From contig BGOS01000003.1 in NCBI GenBank assembly GCA_003569365.1, forward strand, positions 64,315 to 128,314: a stretch of DNA of 64,000 nt. The letters are read 5' to 3'. Source of the stretch: Anaerolineaceae bacterium (GTDB lineage Bacteria > Chloroflexota > Anaerolineae > Anaerolineales > UBA11657). The translations under genes and the position numbers were made by a program. This document shows, one piece after another, positions 30,371 to 42,772 of the stretch (positions are counted from its first letter, which is position 1; each line of letters opens with the position of its first letter). The notes under the pieces are model-generated. The model had not been told where the DNA came from, searched no databases, and was given only the letters and a program-made list of their open reading frames with translations.

Positions 30371-30388
30371 CGCGATTGCGGGGGCGTG

Positions 30389-31369
30389 ATGAAGCAATCC
30401 CAGCCCGTTGGGCGCGCCCGCAAAACTTTCCAAATGAACCCCTACACTAAAAAGCTGGACATCAATCGTTGCAGTGAAGCGGAGCTGCTAGCGCTCGATG
30501 GCGTGGGTGCGGAGCTGGCTGCTGCGATCATTGCGCGCCGGCCCTATGGCTCGGTGCTGGGGGTGCGGTCAATTCCCGGGATGACTGCAAGAACGTACCA
30601 GGCATTGAAGGCTTGCTTGCATGTGGAGCACCGGCCGCCGGCTGAAAAGCTGAATTTGAATACGGCGAGCCTGCGCGAGCTGCTGCTTGTGCCGGAGATG
30701 ACGGCCGAGGCGGCCGAACGGATCTTGATGCTGCGTCCGTTTGCAGGCGTGCTGGACTTGAAGTGGGTGCCGGAAGTTTCCAGCGAACAGCTTGCAGTGT
30801 TTGTGGACTGGTTTGTGGCGGGCGATAGTGCGGGCAATCCCGGGGCGCCAGAGAGCGCTGCGGTGGGCGGCGCGGATGTTGCCGGGGATGGCGCCAATGA
30901 TGGCGAAGAGCGGGGCGATAGCGATCCGACTTTGGTGATTGACCGTGAGAAGGACGGTGGCGTGGGCGAAAGTGCGGATAGCGGCGATCCGGATGCTACT
31001 GCCACCGCCGGCAGCGATGTTGATGATTTTGCCGATGGTTCGGCTGATGCGGATGCGGACGAGGCTGAGAGCGACGCGGATGTTGCCGGTGAATTTGAGA
31101 CTGGTGTGGTGGATCTGCCGGCGGGCTTGTTGCCGTTGCCGGCCGTTGATTGGGCGGCGGGAACGGGCCTGGGGTTGGATGACGATGCCATAACGGTTGA
31201 TGTGCCGGGCGGACGTTCGGCGGCACCATCGGCTGACCGGTTGCCGGATGATATGGCGATTTTGAGCGGCCTGAGAATGCGATGCTCGGTTATCCTGCGC
31301 GGGGCGGCAATCCGGGAGCGGGCCAGCGCGTATTGCAATGGCTGGGCTCGCCGCAGGTGCGTGGGTTAG
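30389..31369 (+). CDS. tandem helix-hairpin-helix (ComEA-like) protein with long acidic low-complexity tail
   Basis: Two HhH units (EAELLALDGVGAELAAAII; LRELLLVPEMTAEAAERIL) are followed by about 150 aa rich in D/G/A/E. Confidence 0.65.
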   Translation: MKQSQPVGRARKTFQMNPYTKKLDINRCSEAELLALDGVGAELAAAIIARRPYGSVLGVRSIPGMTARTYQALKACLHVEHRPPAEKLNLNTASLRELLLVPEMTAEAAERILMLRPFAGVLDLKWVPEVSSEQLAVFVDWFVAGDSAGNPGAPESAAVGGADVAGDGANDGEERGDSDPTLVIDREKDGGVGESADSGDPDATATAGSDVDDFADGSADADADEAESDADVAGEFETGVVDLPAGLLPLPAVDWAAGTGLGLDDDAITVDVPGGRSAAPSADRLPDDMAILSGLRMRCSVILRGAAIRERASAYCNGWARRRCVG

Positions 31370-32325
31370 TGGTTAGCGCATTGGTAATCGGGGCGTTTGC
31401 CGGCGGGTTGTATTTTGTGTTTAGGCGGGAGGCGCCGGCTGTGGTTGTGGCAGTTGTTCCCACCGCCACAGCTATGCCGCCAACAGCGACAACCGTGCCA
31501 ACGCTGGTGCCAACTCCCACCGCTGAGCCAACAATTGAGCCGACACCCAGCGGGCGGACTTACCGGCTGCGTCTTTCACATTACTGGCCGGCACTGGGCG
31601 GTACCAACTGCCATGCAGCGGAGTGGGTGGATGGCGAATGCAAAACGCAGCTGGCTGGTAAACCGTGGCAACAGTGGGCGGGCATCGGGGCGGCCTGCCC
31701 CAAGGAAATCCCGACCGGCACCGAAATCAGTATTCCGGATCTGGGGCGCAGTTTTATCTGTGTGGACAAGGGCGGGGCGATTGAGGCAGTTCCAGACGGG
31801 TCCTTTTTTATTGACTTGATCCAAAAGGATAATTTGTACCTCCCGAACGCTGAAGTGATCAAGGACGAGTACTGTCCGCAGACTTGCTTTGTGGTGGATG
31901 GGTTGGTGATACCGAAGGCAAACACTGGCATACCGGGGAGTACCGCTGCCGTTGCCAAGGCGGATTGGTTTACGGTGCGCTTGGGGAATTGGTGGGAGGA
32001 CGAGTGGGGCGCGGGCTGCAAGCCGGGCAAGCCGCTGCTGGGCTGCAATTACAAGATAAACGGGCAGCCGGTGCAGAGCTGGATCGGGGTTGCCGCAAAG
32101 TGCCCGTCAGATTTTGAGCTGGGCTCGATGGTTTATGTGGCGGTGCTGGAGGCGCAGGTAACTTGCCTGGTGGTGGGCGAGAAGCGCGCTTTGGACGGCT
32201 CAGGTTTTATGATCATGCTGCAGCCGGATCCATTGTTTTTGCCGGCGGCGCAGACAGTGCGCGATGGAGACTGCCCGAGCAGCTGCTTTGTGAGCCAGGC
32301 AAAGAAGCTGGTGCCGAACCCCTAG
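31357..32325 (+). CDS. membrane-anchored protein with two tandem 3D-domain-like (MltA/RlpA DPBB-type) repeats; start uncertain (31282, 31357 or 31369)
   Basis: A TM anchor (LVVSALVIGAFAGGLYFVF) and a Pro/Thr linker precede repeat 1, whose GIGAACPKEIPTGTEISIPDLGRSFICVDKGGAI...FIDL resembles the 3D domain. A degenerate second copy follows. Confidence 0.5.
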   Translation: MRGLVVSALVIGAFAGGLYFVFRREAPAVVVAVVPTATAMPPTATTVPTLVPTPTAEPTIEPTPSGRTYRLRLSHYWPALGGTNCHAAEWVDGECKTQLAGKPWQQWAGIGAACPKEIPTGTEISIPDLGRSFICVDKGGAIEAVPDGSFFIDLIQKDNLYLPNAEVIKDEYCPQTCFVVDGLVIPKANTGIPGSTAAVAKADWFTVRLGNWWEDEWGAGCKPGKPLLGCNYKINGQPVQSWIGVAAKCPSDFELGSMVYVAVLEAQVTCLVVGEKRALDGSGFMIMLQPDPLFLPAAQTVRDGDCPSSCFVSQAKKLVPNP

Positions 32326-32753: not shown

Positions 32754-34733
32754 TCACGGAATTCCATAGAGCGCATATTCCCGCGTTTTTGAAAGAAGCG
32801 GCAGTTGTATCTTCCAATCCGGGTAAGTGATCACACCTGTAAATCTGAATTCCAGCGCAAGTTGTTGCCATTGTTTGGCAGTTCTATCTTCCCAGGCAAT
32901 TTTTCCGGCATCCGGCAGGAGTCCACCTGACCTTGCGTTTTGCACTTCTGTTGATGGGTTAAGAATGTCAGTATCATATACTGTTAATAAAATTTGGTTT
33001 AGATTTTTTGCGACTGATGCCCTGTAGGGGAACACATCGAGTCGTCCTCCGTCGATAAGTACCGCTTGCCTTGTTCTTAGTTGTACATAGTGGAGGTCGG
33101 AGGAGGTGACTAGGAGAGTGGGAATTTGAGTGGCGGCAAGTTCTGCGTCTAAGACCCAGGGATGAATTTTGGAAAGATTTTGGTCCTTCCATCCTCCAGC
33201 TATATTAATTGTTAACGCTATTGCCGTGAGACAAAACATGGCTATGTAGTCCGCTTGCGGCCATTTTCGAAATAGGTTTACGGTCAACTTCCAGACTTTC
33301 GTCGTTATACGGCTGCCAGTTTTCCAGTAGAAGCTGAGGATTGTGGCGGCTGAAAGTAGGTATAGGATTGATGCAGTTCGTAGTCTGCCTATTGAGTAGT
33401 AGCTGGAAAGTGCAAGCGTGAATTTCTTTCCGATCAGAATTACGGTTCCGAAAAGCAGCAGCGACAGGGCGGTGTTTCTAGCAAGTACTTTAGTGGGTAT
33501 GGAGTTGGGGTTACTTTCGATAACTAGAAAAATTATTCCGGCACCTAACGACGCAATCGTGGCCGGAACGGTCAAGTTAGGTGCTAGGAAGTAAAGCATG
33601 CAGAGCGTAAGTAGCAGCCATAGCCGGGAAGCAATGCTAGCGGAACTGCGCGCAAGCAGCCCCACACACAGAATGGGCAATAACAAGATCGAAAGGTTCA
33701 TCCACCGCATGGGCATCAGAATGAGAATGCTTATGGGCAGGATTTCCGGGGGCAGCCAAGATAACGCAATTCCTATAATCCCGCACGCAGAGGCTATAAA
33801 ACTCAGCCAGAGTAGGTTATTTATGGGCACTGCTTGTGATGCTTTGCAGCTCTTTAATAGATAGATCGTGGCGAGTAGATTTGCAACCAAATAGGTTGTC
33901 CCCACTGTCAATAGTGGGACCGCTCGTCTATGTGCATCCCAATTCTTGATGAACGCGAGAATGTATTCAGTGCCAGATGCCGCATTTGGCACAATCGCTG
34001 CAGCTGAAACTTGTTGTTGTACCAGGTAACTGGCTGTAGCTAATGCGGTACCGATAATGAACCAACGGTAAATTGTCTTCTGCGGAAATCCAATTTCGCG
34101 CAGTTTGGTGAGGCAATAACCGGAAATTATTATCCAACCCAGAACGCCATAAGAACTATGGATCGAAGGCAGGATTCCTAACAGAAATGCGCCCCATGCG
34201 TTTTTGCGCAGGCTTAGAAACGCGATAGAAAGTAGTAGGCACGAAAGACCGATAATGCCGTGTGTGTGCGGGTAACCTAGGAGCCAGATGGGATATACAG
34301 CGCCAAAATCTGCCGCCCGAGTTGCGTAGATAAATACAGGTGTTATGAGAGACATCCATATGTTTTCTGTGCATGCCAGCGCGCAAAGACTAATTGCCTG
34401 AAACGAGACCATCCCCAAAAGTCCACTGACGAATATGGAGACCAAGACTTCGGACAGCCCAAGACGCAGAAGGATTGCGCAGAATTGTACTAGTATTGAC
34501 CATATATTTGCTTCTATAAGAGCATAGTTACTGTGCGGAGTTGGATGTATGACTGCGCCTACGATTTGCGCATACTCGACTGCTTCCTGCCAAGTGGGAT
34601 AAATTAGCGCAGCCAAACAAAATCCAATTAGGCCACTTATTGCCAGGGACATGTATATAGTTCTATTCGTGAGATTATGAACGAGAGACGGATCTTGTTT
34701 ATTGAATATATTTTGGTTACTGGAGCTGTTCAT
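32754..34733 (-). CDS. large polytopic integral membrane protein of unknown function (GT-C-like architecture: many TM helices plus C-terminal soluble domain)
   Basis: 659-aa ORF in a clearly AT-richer segment. At least 12 hydrophobic segments are followed by an approximately 150-aa hydrophilic C-terminus. No motif I can name. Confidence 0.65.
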   Translation of the reverse strand: MNSSSNQNIFNKQDPSLVHNLTNRTIYMSLAISGLIGFCLAALIYPTWQEAVEYAQIVGAVIHPTPHSNYALIEANIWSILVQFCAILLRLGLSEVLVSIFVSGLLGMVSFQAISLCALACTENIWMSLITPVFIYATRAADFGAVYPIWLLGYPHTHGIIGLSCLLLSIAFLSLRKNAWGAFLLGILPSIHSSYGVLGWIIISGYCLTKLREIGFPQKTIYRWFIIGTALATASYLVQQQVSAAAIVPNAASGTEYILAFIKNWDAHRRAVPLLTVGTTYLVANLLATIYLLKSCKASQAVPINNLLWLSFIASACGIIGIALSWLPPEILPISILILMPMRWMNLSILLLPILCVGLLARSSASIASRLWLLLTLCMLYFLAPNLTVPATIASLGAGIIFLVIESNPNSIPTKVLARNTALSLLLFGTVILIGKKFTLALSSYYSIGRLRTASILYLLSAATILSFYWKTGSRITTKVWKLTVNLFRKWPQADYIAMFCLTAIALTINIAGGWKDQNLSKIHPWVLDAELAATQIPTLLVTSSDLHYVQLRTRQAVLIDGGRLDVFPYRASVAKNLNQILLTVYDTDILNPSTEVQNARSGGLLPDAGKIAWEDRTAKQWQQLALEFRFTGVITYPDWKIQLPLLSKTREYALYGIP

Positions 34734-35201: not shown

Positions 35202-36414
35202 TTACTTGGTCGGTATCTGGCTCCGGGATTTCGACGGCTTAAACGATAGTGGCAAATGAGTTGGGCCTGTATTGCCGCTGTCGGGCAAGTATGCAGCTTC
35301 GGGGCTCACGCGCATTTCGGGCAGGCGCGCGGCCAGAGCTTTGAAGGCTTCCGTCATATCCAGGCGTGCCACCAAGTGGCCGATACAGTGATGCATGCCG
35401 CCGCCGAAACCAAAATGAGGCGGTCGTTCTTTCTCAATATCAAATTCAGCCGCTTCTAATTTGCGCGGATCGCTGCCGGCTGGAATGGTGAGCAGGTGCA
35501 CGGTGGTTCCCTTTTCAATTGTGAGCTCGCGGTACTGCATATCCTCTGATGCCTCACGCGACACCCAGGTGATGGTTGGGTTGACGCGCATTACCTCCTC
35601 CACTGCCTGGCGAGCCAGCGCCGGGTTGGCGCCGAGCTTTTGCCATTGGCCTGGGTGGTCCGCAAAGGTTTGCATGCCCAATCCAATTTGATTGCGCGTT
35701 GTGTCAAATCCGGCGAAGACTACAATCGACACAAGTGAGAGCAGCTCGGCTTCTGTAATCGGTGCCATCGAGGCTGGCTCTTACCAGCGTGCCAACAAAG
35801 TCATCCGCATGTGTGCCGCGCCTCGCATCAATCAGCGCTTTTGAGATGTCGAGAATGCCCTGCAGTCCATGCTCGATGGCCGCTAACTTGTCTTTTATCG
35901 TCACAGAGAAGACATAGCCCAGCTCGGTCGCCAGGTCGGCAAGCAGGCGCCAATTGTGCTTTGGTATTCCCAGCAGCCCGGTAATCACGCGCGCTGAAAA
36001 TGGCTCCGCAAATTCGCGCATGAACTCGCAACTGCCGCGTTCGCAGAAGCCGTCAATCAGCTCGTTGGCAAGCTCGGCGAAATATCCCGTCAGCGGTTCG
36101 ATGACGCGCGAGGAGAAAGCCGGGTTGGCTAATTTGCGCAGGCGCAGATGATCCTGGCCTTCAACGCTTAGCAACATTGTCTGCCACCAGTCAGCCAGCA
36201 AGCCGCTGGTAATGCCGTAATGTGCCGGCCAGCGCCGCGTGCCTTGGTAAAGACGCCGGTCTTTCAACAACGCATTTACATCCGCATATCTGAGGACGGC
36301 GATGCTAAAGGGGGTTTTAGCGTACCAGTGGTTTTCGCGGGCCTGCATGACTGCGGCCGAGCGGATTGAAAATCCGGCCTGATTGAAATCTAGAAAAGCG
36401 AGGTCTGGAGACAT
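35202..36414 (-). pseudogene. cytochrome P450, split by a 1-nt frameshift near 35768-35781 (pseudogene or sequence error)
   Basis: The N-terminal ORF 35704..36414 and C-terminal ORF 35202..35768 overlap in different frames. The I-helix (FAGFDTTRNQ), EXXR (EEVMRV) and heme loop (FGFGGGMHHCIGHLVA) are all in the C-terminal piece. Confidence 0.85.
35251..35335. repeat. 85-bp direct repeat, copy 2 (inside the 3' end of the P450 gene)
   Basis: See copy 1. The two copies are 2637 bp apart. Confidence 0.9.
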
Positions 36415-39114: not shown

Positions 39115-40038
39115 CTATACCGTTACGAGTTCCGGCCGCATAATGTAATCCCACCAATTGTGCGACACCTGCGCGCTGCTGCCCGTTGTGTGCGGCAGGC
39201 GCTGCAGCCACCACAAGTGATGTGCGCGAATATCTCCGCCGCCCCAGTCTATGCAATTCATCGCGCGAGCCGCGCCGCCCAACTGTGGAAAGTTTAGCCA
39301 GCTGTCTGCGCTGCACTGCACCGGGCGGCGGCTGCCCCATTCGTAATCGCGTTCGCTGTTGGGCGCAAAGTGCACATTGCCGCATTCTGCCCGGCCGGGA
39401 TGCGTGCGTTCGTGGCGCGTGAAGCGTTCCCACAAGTTGTGCGCAGTGGGTGCTTGCGCAAACACGTGCGCCATGATGGATTCTGTGCGGTGCCCCAGGT
39501 TCTCCAGCATTTCGCCCGGCCCGCGCTCGTAGTTGAACCCCATAATCACAAAGCGCCGCCCCGCTGCGCCCGTGTTGGTGAGCGGCGGCGCATTGCACCA
39601 AAACGCGTCCGGCCCGCCCATGATCGATTCGTAATAGCCCGCGTAGGGGAATGCCATCAGCCACACTTCATCAATTGCACCAGCGTGCACGCGCTGCAGA
39701 ATGTTGAAGCGCTGGATCAGGCGCATGTAATCCACCGCGTCCGGCTGGTGAAATCCGCTGCGGCTGTGCCAGCAATCCAGATAATGCTGCGCAGTGTAGT
39801 TGAAGCCGTCCAGCTTGGCGGGAAACGCATCGACGAGCACGCGTTCAACAATGCGGTATTGCACCAGGCCGTGGCTGGCGGTCGCCACATCGGCGCAATA
39901 TTGGTTGGCTAGTTCATCGGGGTCGTTCCAGCCCAGCGCGCTGTGTAAGCTTTGGCTGCGCTGTGCACCCACCAGCGGGTCATGGATGATGAGCAGTACG
40001 CGCTGCTCGATGGGCGCTGCGACTTCGGTCAAGTGCAC
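39115..40038 (-). CDS. hypothetical protein, enzyme-like, no recognisable family
   Basis: 307-aa ORF with coding-like composition, rich in His/Trp/Cys (GNVHFAPNSERDYEWG, WGGGDIRAHHLWWLQRLP). No signal peptide. Confidence 0.6.
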   Translation of the reverse strand: MHLTEVAAPIEQRVLLIIHDPLVGAQRSQSLHSALGWNDPDELANQYCADVATASHGLVQYRIVERVLVDAFPAKLDGFNYTAQHYLDCWHSRSGFHQPDAVDYMRLIQRFNILQRVHAGAIDEVWLMAFPYAGYYESIMGGPDAFWCNAPPLTNTGAAGRRFVIMGFNYERGPGEMLENLGHRTESIMAHVFAQAPTAHNLWERFTRHERTHPGRAECGNVHFAPNSERDYEWGSRRPVQCSADSWLNFPQLGGAARAMNCIDWGGGDIRAHHLWWLQRLPHTTGSSAQVSHNWWDYIMRPELVTV

Positions 40039-40059: not shown

Positions 40060-40681
40060 TTAGTCAGCGCTCGCGTAGCCTTGCGCAATGCACTCGTCCG
40101 CAGCCCGGCGTAGCACGTCCACCGGCTGCGCGCCAGAAACCAAAAATCTTTCACCAAAGATCATCGCGGGCACTCCGCTAATGCCAAGCGCGCGGGCTTC
40201 GTCCAAGTCCGCCTGCACCTCTGCGCGGTGCGCACCGGTCTGCACCGCCGCCAGAAAATCAACCGGGTCCAGGCCAATTCCGGATGCGATGGTGGAGCGT
40301 AGTGTAGTCATCCAGTCGCTGTCCGGCTTGCCAGTGCGCTATAAAACAGGCGTGCACGTACTCAAGTTCGAGCGCGTGCAGCCGGGCAAACTTGCTGCCT
40401 TCCAGCGCCGGCCGCGAGTCGACGCCAAAAGCCCCGGCGCGCATCTCCAGCCCAAAGCGCTCGCGCGCGGTAGCAAACATTTCGTTCTGCTTGGCGTCAA
40501 TCATTGTGCGGAACTTCGCTGCCTGTTCCGGGCCGCCCGGGAACTTGCCGCCGGGCAGCAGTTCATATGCGCGCCAGTCGCGGGTGATGCTGTGCGTTTG
40601 CGCAAGCGAGTCCAGACCGGACTCGGCCATAAAGCACCACGGTCAGACGAAATCGCTAAATATTTTGATGTTGACGGGCAT
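40060..40681 (-). CDS. DsbA/FrnE-family thiol oxidoreductase with in-frame TGA at the first CxxC position and a downstream frameshift (candidate selenoprotein, or decaying gene)
   Basis: Minus strand from ATG 40681 reads MPVNIKIFSDFV-TGA-PWCFMAESGLD..., continuous with ORF 40259..40630. The C-terminal third (ORF 40060..40311, GISGVPAMIFGERFLVSGAQP) is in another frame. Confidence 0.7.
40607..40625 (-). promoter_or_regulatory. SECIS-like stem-loop 17 nt downstream of the in-frame UGA
   Basis: The mRNA can form CGAGUCC-GGUCU-GGACUCG (7-bp stem, loop starting GGUC). Flanking GUGCUUU and AAA(C)GCAC could extend the helix. Confidence 0.4.
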
Positions 40682-40711
40682 GATGTTGGTGCGCGTTGCC
40701 AGCGGGTTTAA

Positions 40712-42772
<2,061 letters not shown>

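Follow-up and report, generated by a model that had tools for sequence, protein, structure and literature searches.

A DsbA-like gene with an in-frame TGA

The window, by which we mean the whole 64-kb stretch of DNA that was analysed, carries on its minus strand (40060..40681) a gene for a DsbA-like protein of the FrnE/COG2761 type, which was recognised by its translation, a PF01323 match and its orthologs and is predicted to encode a selenoprotein. Its reading frame opens with ATG(40681), runs through twelve N-terminal codons (MPVNIKIFSDFV; 40646..40681, minus strand) that are left out by public gene calls, meets a TGA at 40645..40643 and continues as PWCFMAESGLD... in the translation. The original prediction had started from this in-frame TGA at 40645..40643 and the ATG at 40681, and the same frame and coordinates were recovered here on the minus strand. 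At full length the gene comprises 207 codons including the putative Sec13. In the window it is broken by a 2-nt deletion (40294..40295, minus strand), past which the C-terminal part of the gene (40060..40293, minus strand), with the conserved cis-Pro loop (GVPA) and the TAA stop at 40060..40062, is now out of frame. Shortly downstream of the TGA lies a candidate SECIS hairpin (40607..40625, minus strand), in which 40619..40625 pairs with 40607..40613 to give a stem of 7 bp capped by the loop GGUCU (40614..40618).

In alignments, SDFV-TGA-PWCF of the window lies opposite SDFVCPWCF of the Cys homologs, so that the TGA (40643..40645, minus strand) corresponds to the first Cys of CPWC and would be the first position of a U-P-W-C motif (40634..40645). 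That the TGA sits at the nucleophilic Cys of a CxxC motif in a gene of the FrnE/DsbA type had been proposed from the start, and both the alignment to CPWC homologs and the PF01323 assignment agree with it. The site is singular within the window: a naive scan for UxxC or CxxU motifs with TGA in open frames returned 78 candidates, none of them credible besides 40645, and nearly all of the 78 are off-frame ORFs of GC-rich sequence.

For the family assignment, the TGA was taken as Cys and the frameshift was mended, giving a query protein of 207 residues. Residues 5–195 match PF01323 (DSBA) with E=5e-27, scoring 95 bits where the cutoff is 25.6. Among proteins of solved structure, the closest are FrnE of Deinococcus radiodurans (5CNW, E=4e-15) and SCO1869 of Streptomyces (3GL5, E=6e-13), both of which share with the window protein the cytoplasmic DsbA fold and an N-terminal ..SD..CPWC.. 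arrangement but have Cys in place of the putative Sec. The C-terminal tail of FrnE contains an additional CX4C motif, whereas the window protein ends in ...DECIAQGYASAD, without a motif of the CX4C type. A signal peptide is absent from the DsbA-like protein, whose first beta strand begins at residue 2, and P173 is invariant in the alignment of homologs (A1). NCBIfam holds no specific model for the protein, the sole match being a weak C-terminal one to the Rcas_1661 (seleno)lipoprotein family at 27 bits, well short of the cutoff of 190; the missing dedicated model is consistent with the truncated public annotations described below.

On the same strand, a gene for a 307-aa protein (39115..40038, minus strand) begins 21 nt past the stop of the DsbA-like gene and matches no Pfam family. 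It was considered as a general partner of the DsbA-like gene and rejected, synteny being limited to close relatives and one further locus (L005). Another ORF of the window, of 659 aa (32754..34733, minus strand), likewise has no Pfam match.

The 2-nt deletion and other small deletions in the window

Nine close orthologs (L001, L002, L003 and L086–L091) are intact, with protein identities of 86–95% and DNA identities of 82–89%, and their frames are uninterrupted apart from the putative Sec codon, whereas the frame in the window is not. Where the orthologs read CTC GGC ACx, the window has CTC--CACC, the GG of the GGC codon being missing between 40295 and 40294. The deletion was located in alignments with L001, L002 and L003 and is private to the window in an alignment of seven sequences; it lies some 348 nt past the TGA and not in a homopolymer. 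The shifted frame stops at 40259..40261, before the cis-Pro loop, so that the gene as written would yield a protein cut short at about 140 residues and lacking this loop. Downstream of the frameshift, the codons of the window differ from those of the orthologs by 23–30 synonymous and 3–11 non-synonymous changes, and this mostly synonymous divergence, a mark of continuing purifying selection on the part past the shift, indicates that the deletion is either recent or artificial.

The deletion does not stand alone. Private small deletions were found in the window at 40294/5, 39113, 35760 together with 35763, and 31261, three of which split genes; these are four private events in about 23 kb, all of them deletions. 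Among the seven sequences aligned over 6.2 kb, the window alone has private indels, the six relatives having none. Because several private, deletion-only events fall within the window and none in the six relatives, the 2-nt deletion is probably an error of the assembly consensus. The original prediction had placed a frameshift about 330 nt downstream of the TGA and given it as the ground for a competing explanation by decay; the frameshift is indeed present in the sequence, but it is more likely an assembly error than a sign of decay.

The alternative that survives best accepts the selenoprotein family as genuine and takes the window copy to be a young pseudogene, freshly inactivated by a real 2-nt deletion. 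We regard this as possible though rather unlikely. The deletion is, after all, in the sequence and outside homopolymers, and there is no independent sign of an error, since an exact-pattern scan of metagenome contigs gave 0 matches to the allele with the deletion or to one with the two bases restored, and neither is found in the gene index, which has no record of the exact 123-aa frameshifted ORF. Against a real inactivation stand the mostly synonymous differences of the codons past the frameshift, the lack of private deletions in six relatives, and at least three more private deletions of 1–2 nt in about 23 kb, two of which split the genes for a cytochrome P450 and for a protein with a helix-hairpin-helix domain; moreover, the events are deletions only, as consensus errors would give. 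If the frameshift were real, a selenoprotein gene would have been caught just past its inactivation, with UGA and SECIS still intact.

The neighbouring events were characterised as follows. The deletion at about 39113 is a 1-nt event, private with respect to six relatives, located where the 307-aa gene ends and the intergenic spacer starts. The cytochrome P450 gene (35202..36414, minus strand) falls into two ORFs because of two missing single nucleotides, at 35760 and 35763, counted relative to L090 in a stretch of 97% identity; PF00067 matches the C-terminal half, and relatives have a single ORF of 425–433 aa. The segment 35250..36416 is 93–97% identical to L090 (14309..15477), whereas the flanking syntenic DNA is only about 79–88% identical, which suggests either a recent exchange or unusually strong conservation. 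On the plus strand, the gene with an N-terminal helix-hairpin-helix domain (30386..32325) is divided by a 1-nt deletion at about 31261 into ORFs of 327 and 347 aa, the corresponding gene being a single ORF in both L086 (643 aa) and L090 (697 aa).

Conservation of the TGA and of the downstream hairpin

The TGA is not a peculiarity of the window. Among 91 motif-bearing related loci, nearly all of them labelled Chloroflexota, the codon at the Sec position is TGA in 73 and TGC or TGT in 18. A comparison with orthologs had been proposed together with the original prediction, and besides these 73 loci all nine close orthologs, whose gene bodies are intact, have TGA and not TGC at the same codon. Scanning species-representative genomes brought up 80 loci, whose titles name Anaerolineales, Caldilineales, Ardenticatenaceae, Promineifilaceae, Thermoflexales and Aggregatilineales. 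Five Cys forms (L024, L059, L062, L074 and L075) have the N-terminus of the window clade (FSDYVCPWC.M) and occur alongside Sec forms; Cys forms within the window clade imply at least one switch between Sec and Cys there, accompanied by loss of the hairpin. One Cys-form homolog (L080, JAPUDW010000087.1) comes from a metagenome-assembled genome labelled “Bacteroidetes bacterium”, although this contig may be mis-binned.

The hairpin CGAGUCC-GGUCU-GGACUCG (40625..40607) is present as the original prediction had drawn it, starting 17 nt past the UGA, and its loop begins 24 nt past the UGA. Folded alone, it has a minimum free energy (MFE) of -10.6 kcal/mol, which was equalled by 1 of 200 shuffles. 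The wider 64-nt region folds no better than shuffles (z=-0.98), and only the local hairpin stands out.

Conservation of the hairpin was assessed in an ungapped alignment (A2) that covers 63 nt from the TGA in 67 TGA-form sequences. A core of the form CC-RGUYU-GG is invariant in all of them, the invariant columns including C26, C27, G29, U30, U32, G33 and G34. Three of these, C27, U30 and G33, are synonymous third positions, and their invariance indicates constraint at the level of the RNA. Around the core, two types can be told apart: type A, GAGUCC-GGUCU-GGACUC, encodes AESGLDS and is found in the window clade, and type B, CUCC-AGUUU-GGAG, encodes SSSLEKL and is found in a sister clade. Across the family, the conserved core of the stem is 4 bp and the stem extends to up to 7 bp, the loop reads R-G-U-Y-U with G29 and U30 invariant, and the spacing from UGA to loop is 24 nt in 67 of 67 sequences.

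Covariation points in the same direction. In the 67 TGA forms, 77.9% of the cells of the 7-pair helix are paired compared to 36–50% when the 3' partner is slid, and the observed pairing or covariation score was reached by none of 500 shuffles. Pair 24–36 occurs as CG44/GC12/UG3/GU1/UA1 and pair 25–35 as UA62/GC2/UG1, although most of this covariation splits two large clades and independent events are few. Compensatory changes, whose occurrence across orthologs had been named as a check on the hairpin, were found in TGA forms only, as in L082 (GUGUCC..GGACAC) and L071 (CGCC..GGCG), and in L063 and L068 the stem is kept via G-U wobble pairs. In the 16 Cys forms tested, the CC-RGUYU-GG core is found in none and 38% of the cells in the same columns are paired. 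One of these Cys forms, L059, keeps a similar peptide (ANSGLD), yet is without the hairpin. Throughout the sequences compared, the hairpin is thus strictly tied to the TGA forms.

The element also resembles in part the SECIS of Escherichia coli fdhF, a SelB-dependent element for Sec insertion. The original prediction had pointed out that the loop starts with GGUC as in fdhF, and the K-12 gene indeed reads GCA-GGUC-UGC at this place. Both elements are stem-loops in the coding sequence just past the UGA, and their apical GGUCU is identical. We take the invariant loop G and U (G29/U30) to correspond to the SelB-contacting G23/U24 of fdhF. The two elements differ in that the loop starts 18 nt past the UGA in fdhF as opposed to 24 nt here, in that the window family has no conserved bulged U and a conserved stem of only 4–7 bp, and in that there is no sequence similarity beyond the loop.

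A published model of bacterial SECIS elements (bSECIS) specifies a loop of 3–9 nt with an upper stem of 4–16 bp (PMC13188914 Fig. 2A), a G within the first two loop positions in the pattern N1-G-[G|U]-N-N2, a distance of 16–37 nt from UGA to loop and an MFE of at most -7.5 kcal/mol (PMC13188914). With its 5-nt loop GGUCU, its 7-bp stem, its spacing of 24 nt and its -10.6 kcal/mol, the window element agrees with the model on all four counts, and the distance of about 24 nt, which the original prediction had considered to be within the bacterial range, does fall within it. Some type-B hairpins are weaker, such as that of L007 with about -7.1 kcal/mol in a different register. For type B, the UCUCC/GGAGA register preferred by ViennaRNA was discarded because it fails in sequences of the GUAGCC type, in which the CUCC/GGAG register holds.

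The original prediction further considered a possible lower stem, GUGCUUU with AAA(C)GCAC. It can be drawn in the window, where GUGCUUU (40631..40637) faces AAACGCAC (40592..40599) across 40592..40637 of the minus strand, but family-wide it is only 64.9% paired, mainly through bases fixed by the coding sequence, and shows no convincing covariation; we consider it doubtful. Rfam searches of the window at the gathering threshold and of 40400..40800 at E<=10 gave no match to a SECIS or tRNA-Sec model, the only hit being a chance one to radC. The SECIS core (CCRGTYTGG) occurs four times in the window with 2.3 occurrences expected, and none of the other three follows a plausible Sec codon.

Decoding of the TGA and the known selenoprotein family

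On the evidence of these comparisons, the TGA is very probably a selenocysteine codon in the U-P-W-C active site of a FrnE/DsbA-type oxidoreductase, with a SECIS element downstream. The original prediction had reached the same main reading, and it is now supported by the TGA in orthologs, the covariation of the hairpin and its fit to the bSECIS model. The product would be a cytoplasmic thiol-disulfide oxidoreductase of the DsbA/FrnE type whose redox motif has Sec as the attacking residue. During translation, the UGA at 40645..40643 would be decoded as Sec, while the mRNA 17–35 nt past the UGA would fold into a short hairpin with the loop R-G-U-Y-U. By analogy with E. coli fdhF, this hairpin may recruit SelB-GTP-Sec-tRNASec to the ribosome. 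Because it lies within the coding sequence, the hairpin would also fix the encoded peptide, AESGLDS in the window clade and SSSLEKL in the sister clade. SelB binding, selenium incorporation and the presence of selA, selB, selD and selC in the genome are what we infer from this reading.

The gene makes the organism a likely selenocysteine user. ARAGORN found no tRNA-Sec in the 64-kb window or the related loci, the window containing tRNA-Thr only, and tblastn with the E. coli SelA, SelB and SelD as queries found none of them in the window and 1.3 Mb of loci, each locus representing less than 0.5% of a genome. Sec use is documented in the lineage, SelD, SelA and SelB being listed for Anaerolinea thermophila and Caldilinea aerophila along with 4 and 3 selenoproteins, respectively (PMC5029168 Table S1). 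The 37 long ORFs of the window end in TAG (17), TAA (13) or TGA (7), and TGA is therefore a normal stop elsewhere in the window, as had been maintained in the original prediction; it also terminates the L003 ortholog itself. As a side observation, TGA is the least used stop of the window, which seems unusual at 59% G+C.

Reading of the UGA by a route other than SelB and Sec, be it near-cognate insertion of Trp, Cys or Gly or a lineage-wide reassignment of the codon, is highly unlikely. Such a route would sit well with the Sec machinery not being found in the window and the 1.3 Mb of loci and with TGA being the rarest stop (7 of 37 long ORFs), but TGA still ends ORFs of the window as well as the L003 ortholog, the hairpin fits a bSECIS model of the SelB type, SelA, SelB and SelD occur in cultured Anaerolineae and Caldilineae, and the site is that of the catalytic Cys. 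At catalytic Cys positions, pairs of Sec and Cys are the rule.

Decoding as selenocysteine presupposes that translation starts upstream of the TGA. In the twelve upstream codons, the window differs from L001, L002 and L003 by no non-synonymous and 2–5 synonymous changes. Across 66 distinct TGA forms, the mean entropy of the nine codons before the TGA rises from 0.51 and 0.57 bits at the first two codon positions to 1.35 bits at the third, and the Ser-Asp pair preceding the TGA is invariant. Given differences that are synonymous only and a 3-nt periodicity, the stretch upstream of the TGA is, by its pattern of variation, translated coding sequence. Public databases present the gene differently. 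Of the 47 homologs obtained in a protein search, about 35 (44–92% identity, 187–199 residues) all start with “MAESGLDSL”, the Met lying right after U-PWC-F, while those of a second group (about 40% identity, about 205 residues) are Cys forms that begin about 17 residues earlier with ...SDFVCPWCF. The starts just past the UxxC are explained by gene callers halting at the in-frame TGA. The public “DsbA family” orthologs in our search (P0001–P0021 and P0034–P0043) are truncated past the redox motif because the Sec TGA is read as a stop.

If these annotations were taken at face value, translation would start at ATG 40630 (M18) and produce a DsbA-fold protein without CxxC, leaving the upstream stretch untranslated. 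Despite the roughly 35 database entries called in this way at 188–190 aa, such a start is barely credible: the residues encoded by the 12 upstream codons and PWC are conserved, the variation being synonymous and of a 3-nt period in the same frame, the upstream residues align one-to-one with the N-terminus and CPWC of the Cys homologs, and type-B relatives carry Leu at the position of Met18, so that a downstream restart would lack a start codon there. As for the competing explanation given with the original prediction, a TGC-to-TGA nonsense mutation in a decaying gene with a hairpin there by coincidence, we reject it as having a negligible chance, since, for all that the same gene has a frameshift and the 64-nt region folds unremarkably, the TGA is shared with nine intact close orthologs and 73 of 91 loci from several Chloroflexota orders, the hairpin covaries and is found strictly with TGA, purifying selection acts on the stretch upstream of the TGA, and a TGA artefact shared across independent assemblies is implausible.

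A selenocysteine codon at this position has precedents. The “DsbA-like protein” (COG2761, UxxC) was described in 2005 as a Sargasso Sea selenoprotein family of nine sequences with predicted SECIS elements (Zhang, Fomenko & Gladyshev, PMC1088965), and subsequent work added members from Anaeromyxobacter, Desulfovibrio and Desulfotomaculum (PMC1794560). By 2016, it comprised 45 proteins from 41 organisms (PMC5029168), and in a 2026 review it appears under the name “DsbA-like protein form 1, PF01323, UxxC” (PMC13188914). Apart from its broken frame, the window gene is, by its sequence features, a member of this known family (COG2761/PF01323, UxxC), as judged from the published sequence-level features. 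It shares with the family the FrnE-type PF01323 domain, the putative Sec as first residue of UxxC, a SECIS element immediately downstream and widespread Cys-containing homologs. The difference lies in the hosts, the published members considered here coming from the Sargasso Sea, Deltaproteobacteria and Clostridia and the present one from Chloroflexota. The published accounts of the family (PMC1088965, PMC1794560, PMC5029168, PMC13188914) contain no statement on the prevalence of the Sec form in Anaerolineae-type Chloroflexota and no mention of a tight, lineage-wide SECIS core.

Neither a new mechanism nor a new selenoprotein family is revealed by the gene, and its value lies chiefly in comparative genomics and in annotation. 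The Sec form may plausibly be the rule in Anaerolineae-type Chloroflexota (about 80% of the sampled loci), with a minimal, lineage-typical SECIS (CC-RGUYU-GG, 24 nt past the UGA) that dictates the peptide and with public entries that are almost uniformly truncated at the N-terminus and devoid of the redox motif. For annotation, the finding means a correction: the gene and dozens of its relatives in databases, recorded as DsbA-family proteins of 188–190 aa without a catalytic motif, are very probably UxxC selenoproteins. Lastly, the 67 ungapped sequences and 16 Cys controls make up a well-populated case of a SECIS element embedded in coding sequence, and this sequence set could be used to train models of bacterial SECIS elements, which are lacking in Rfam.
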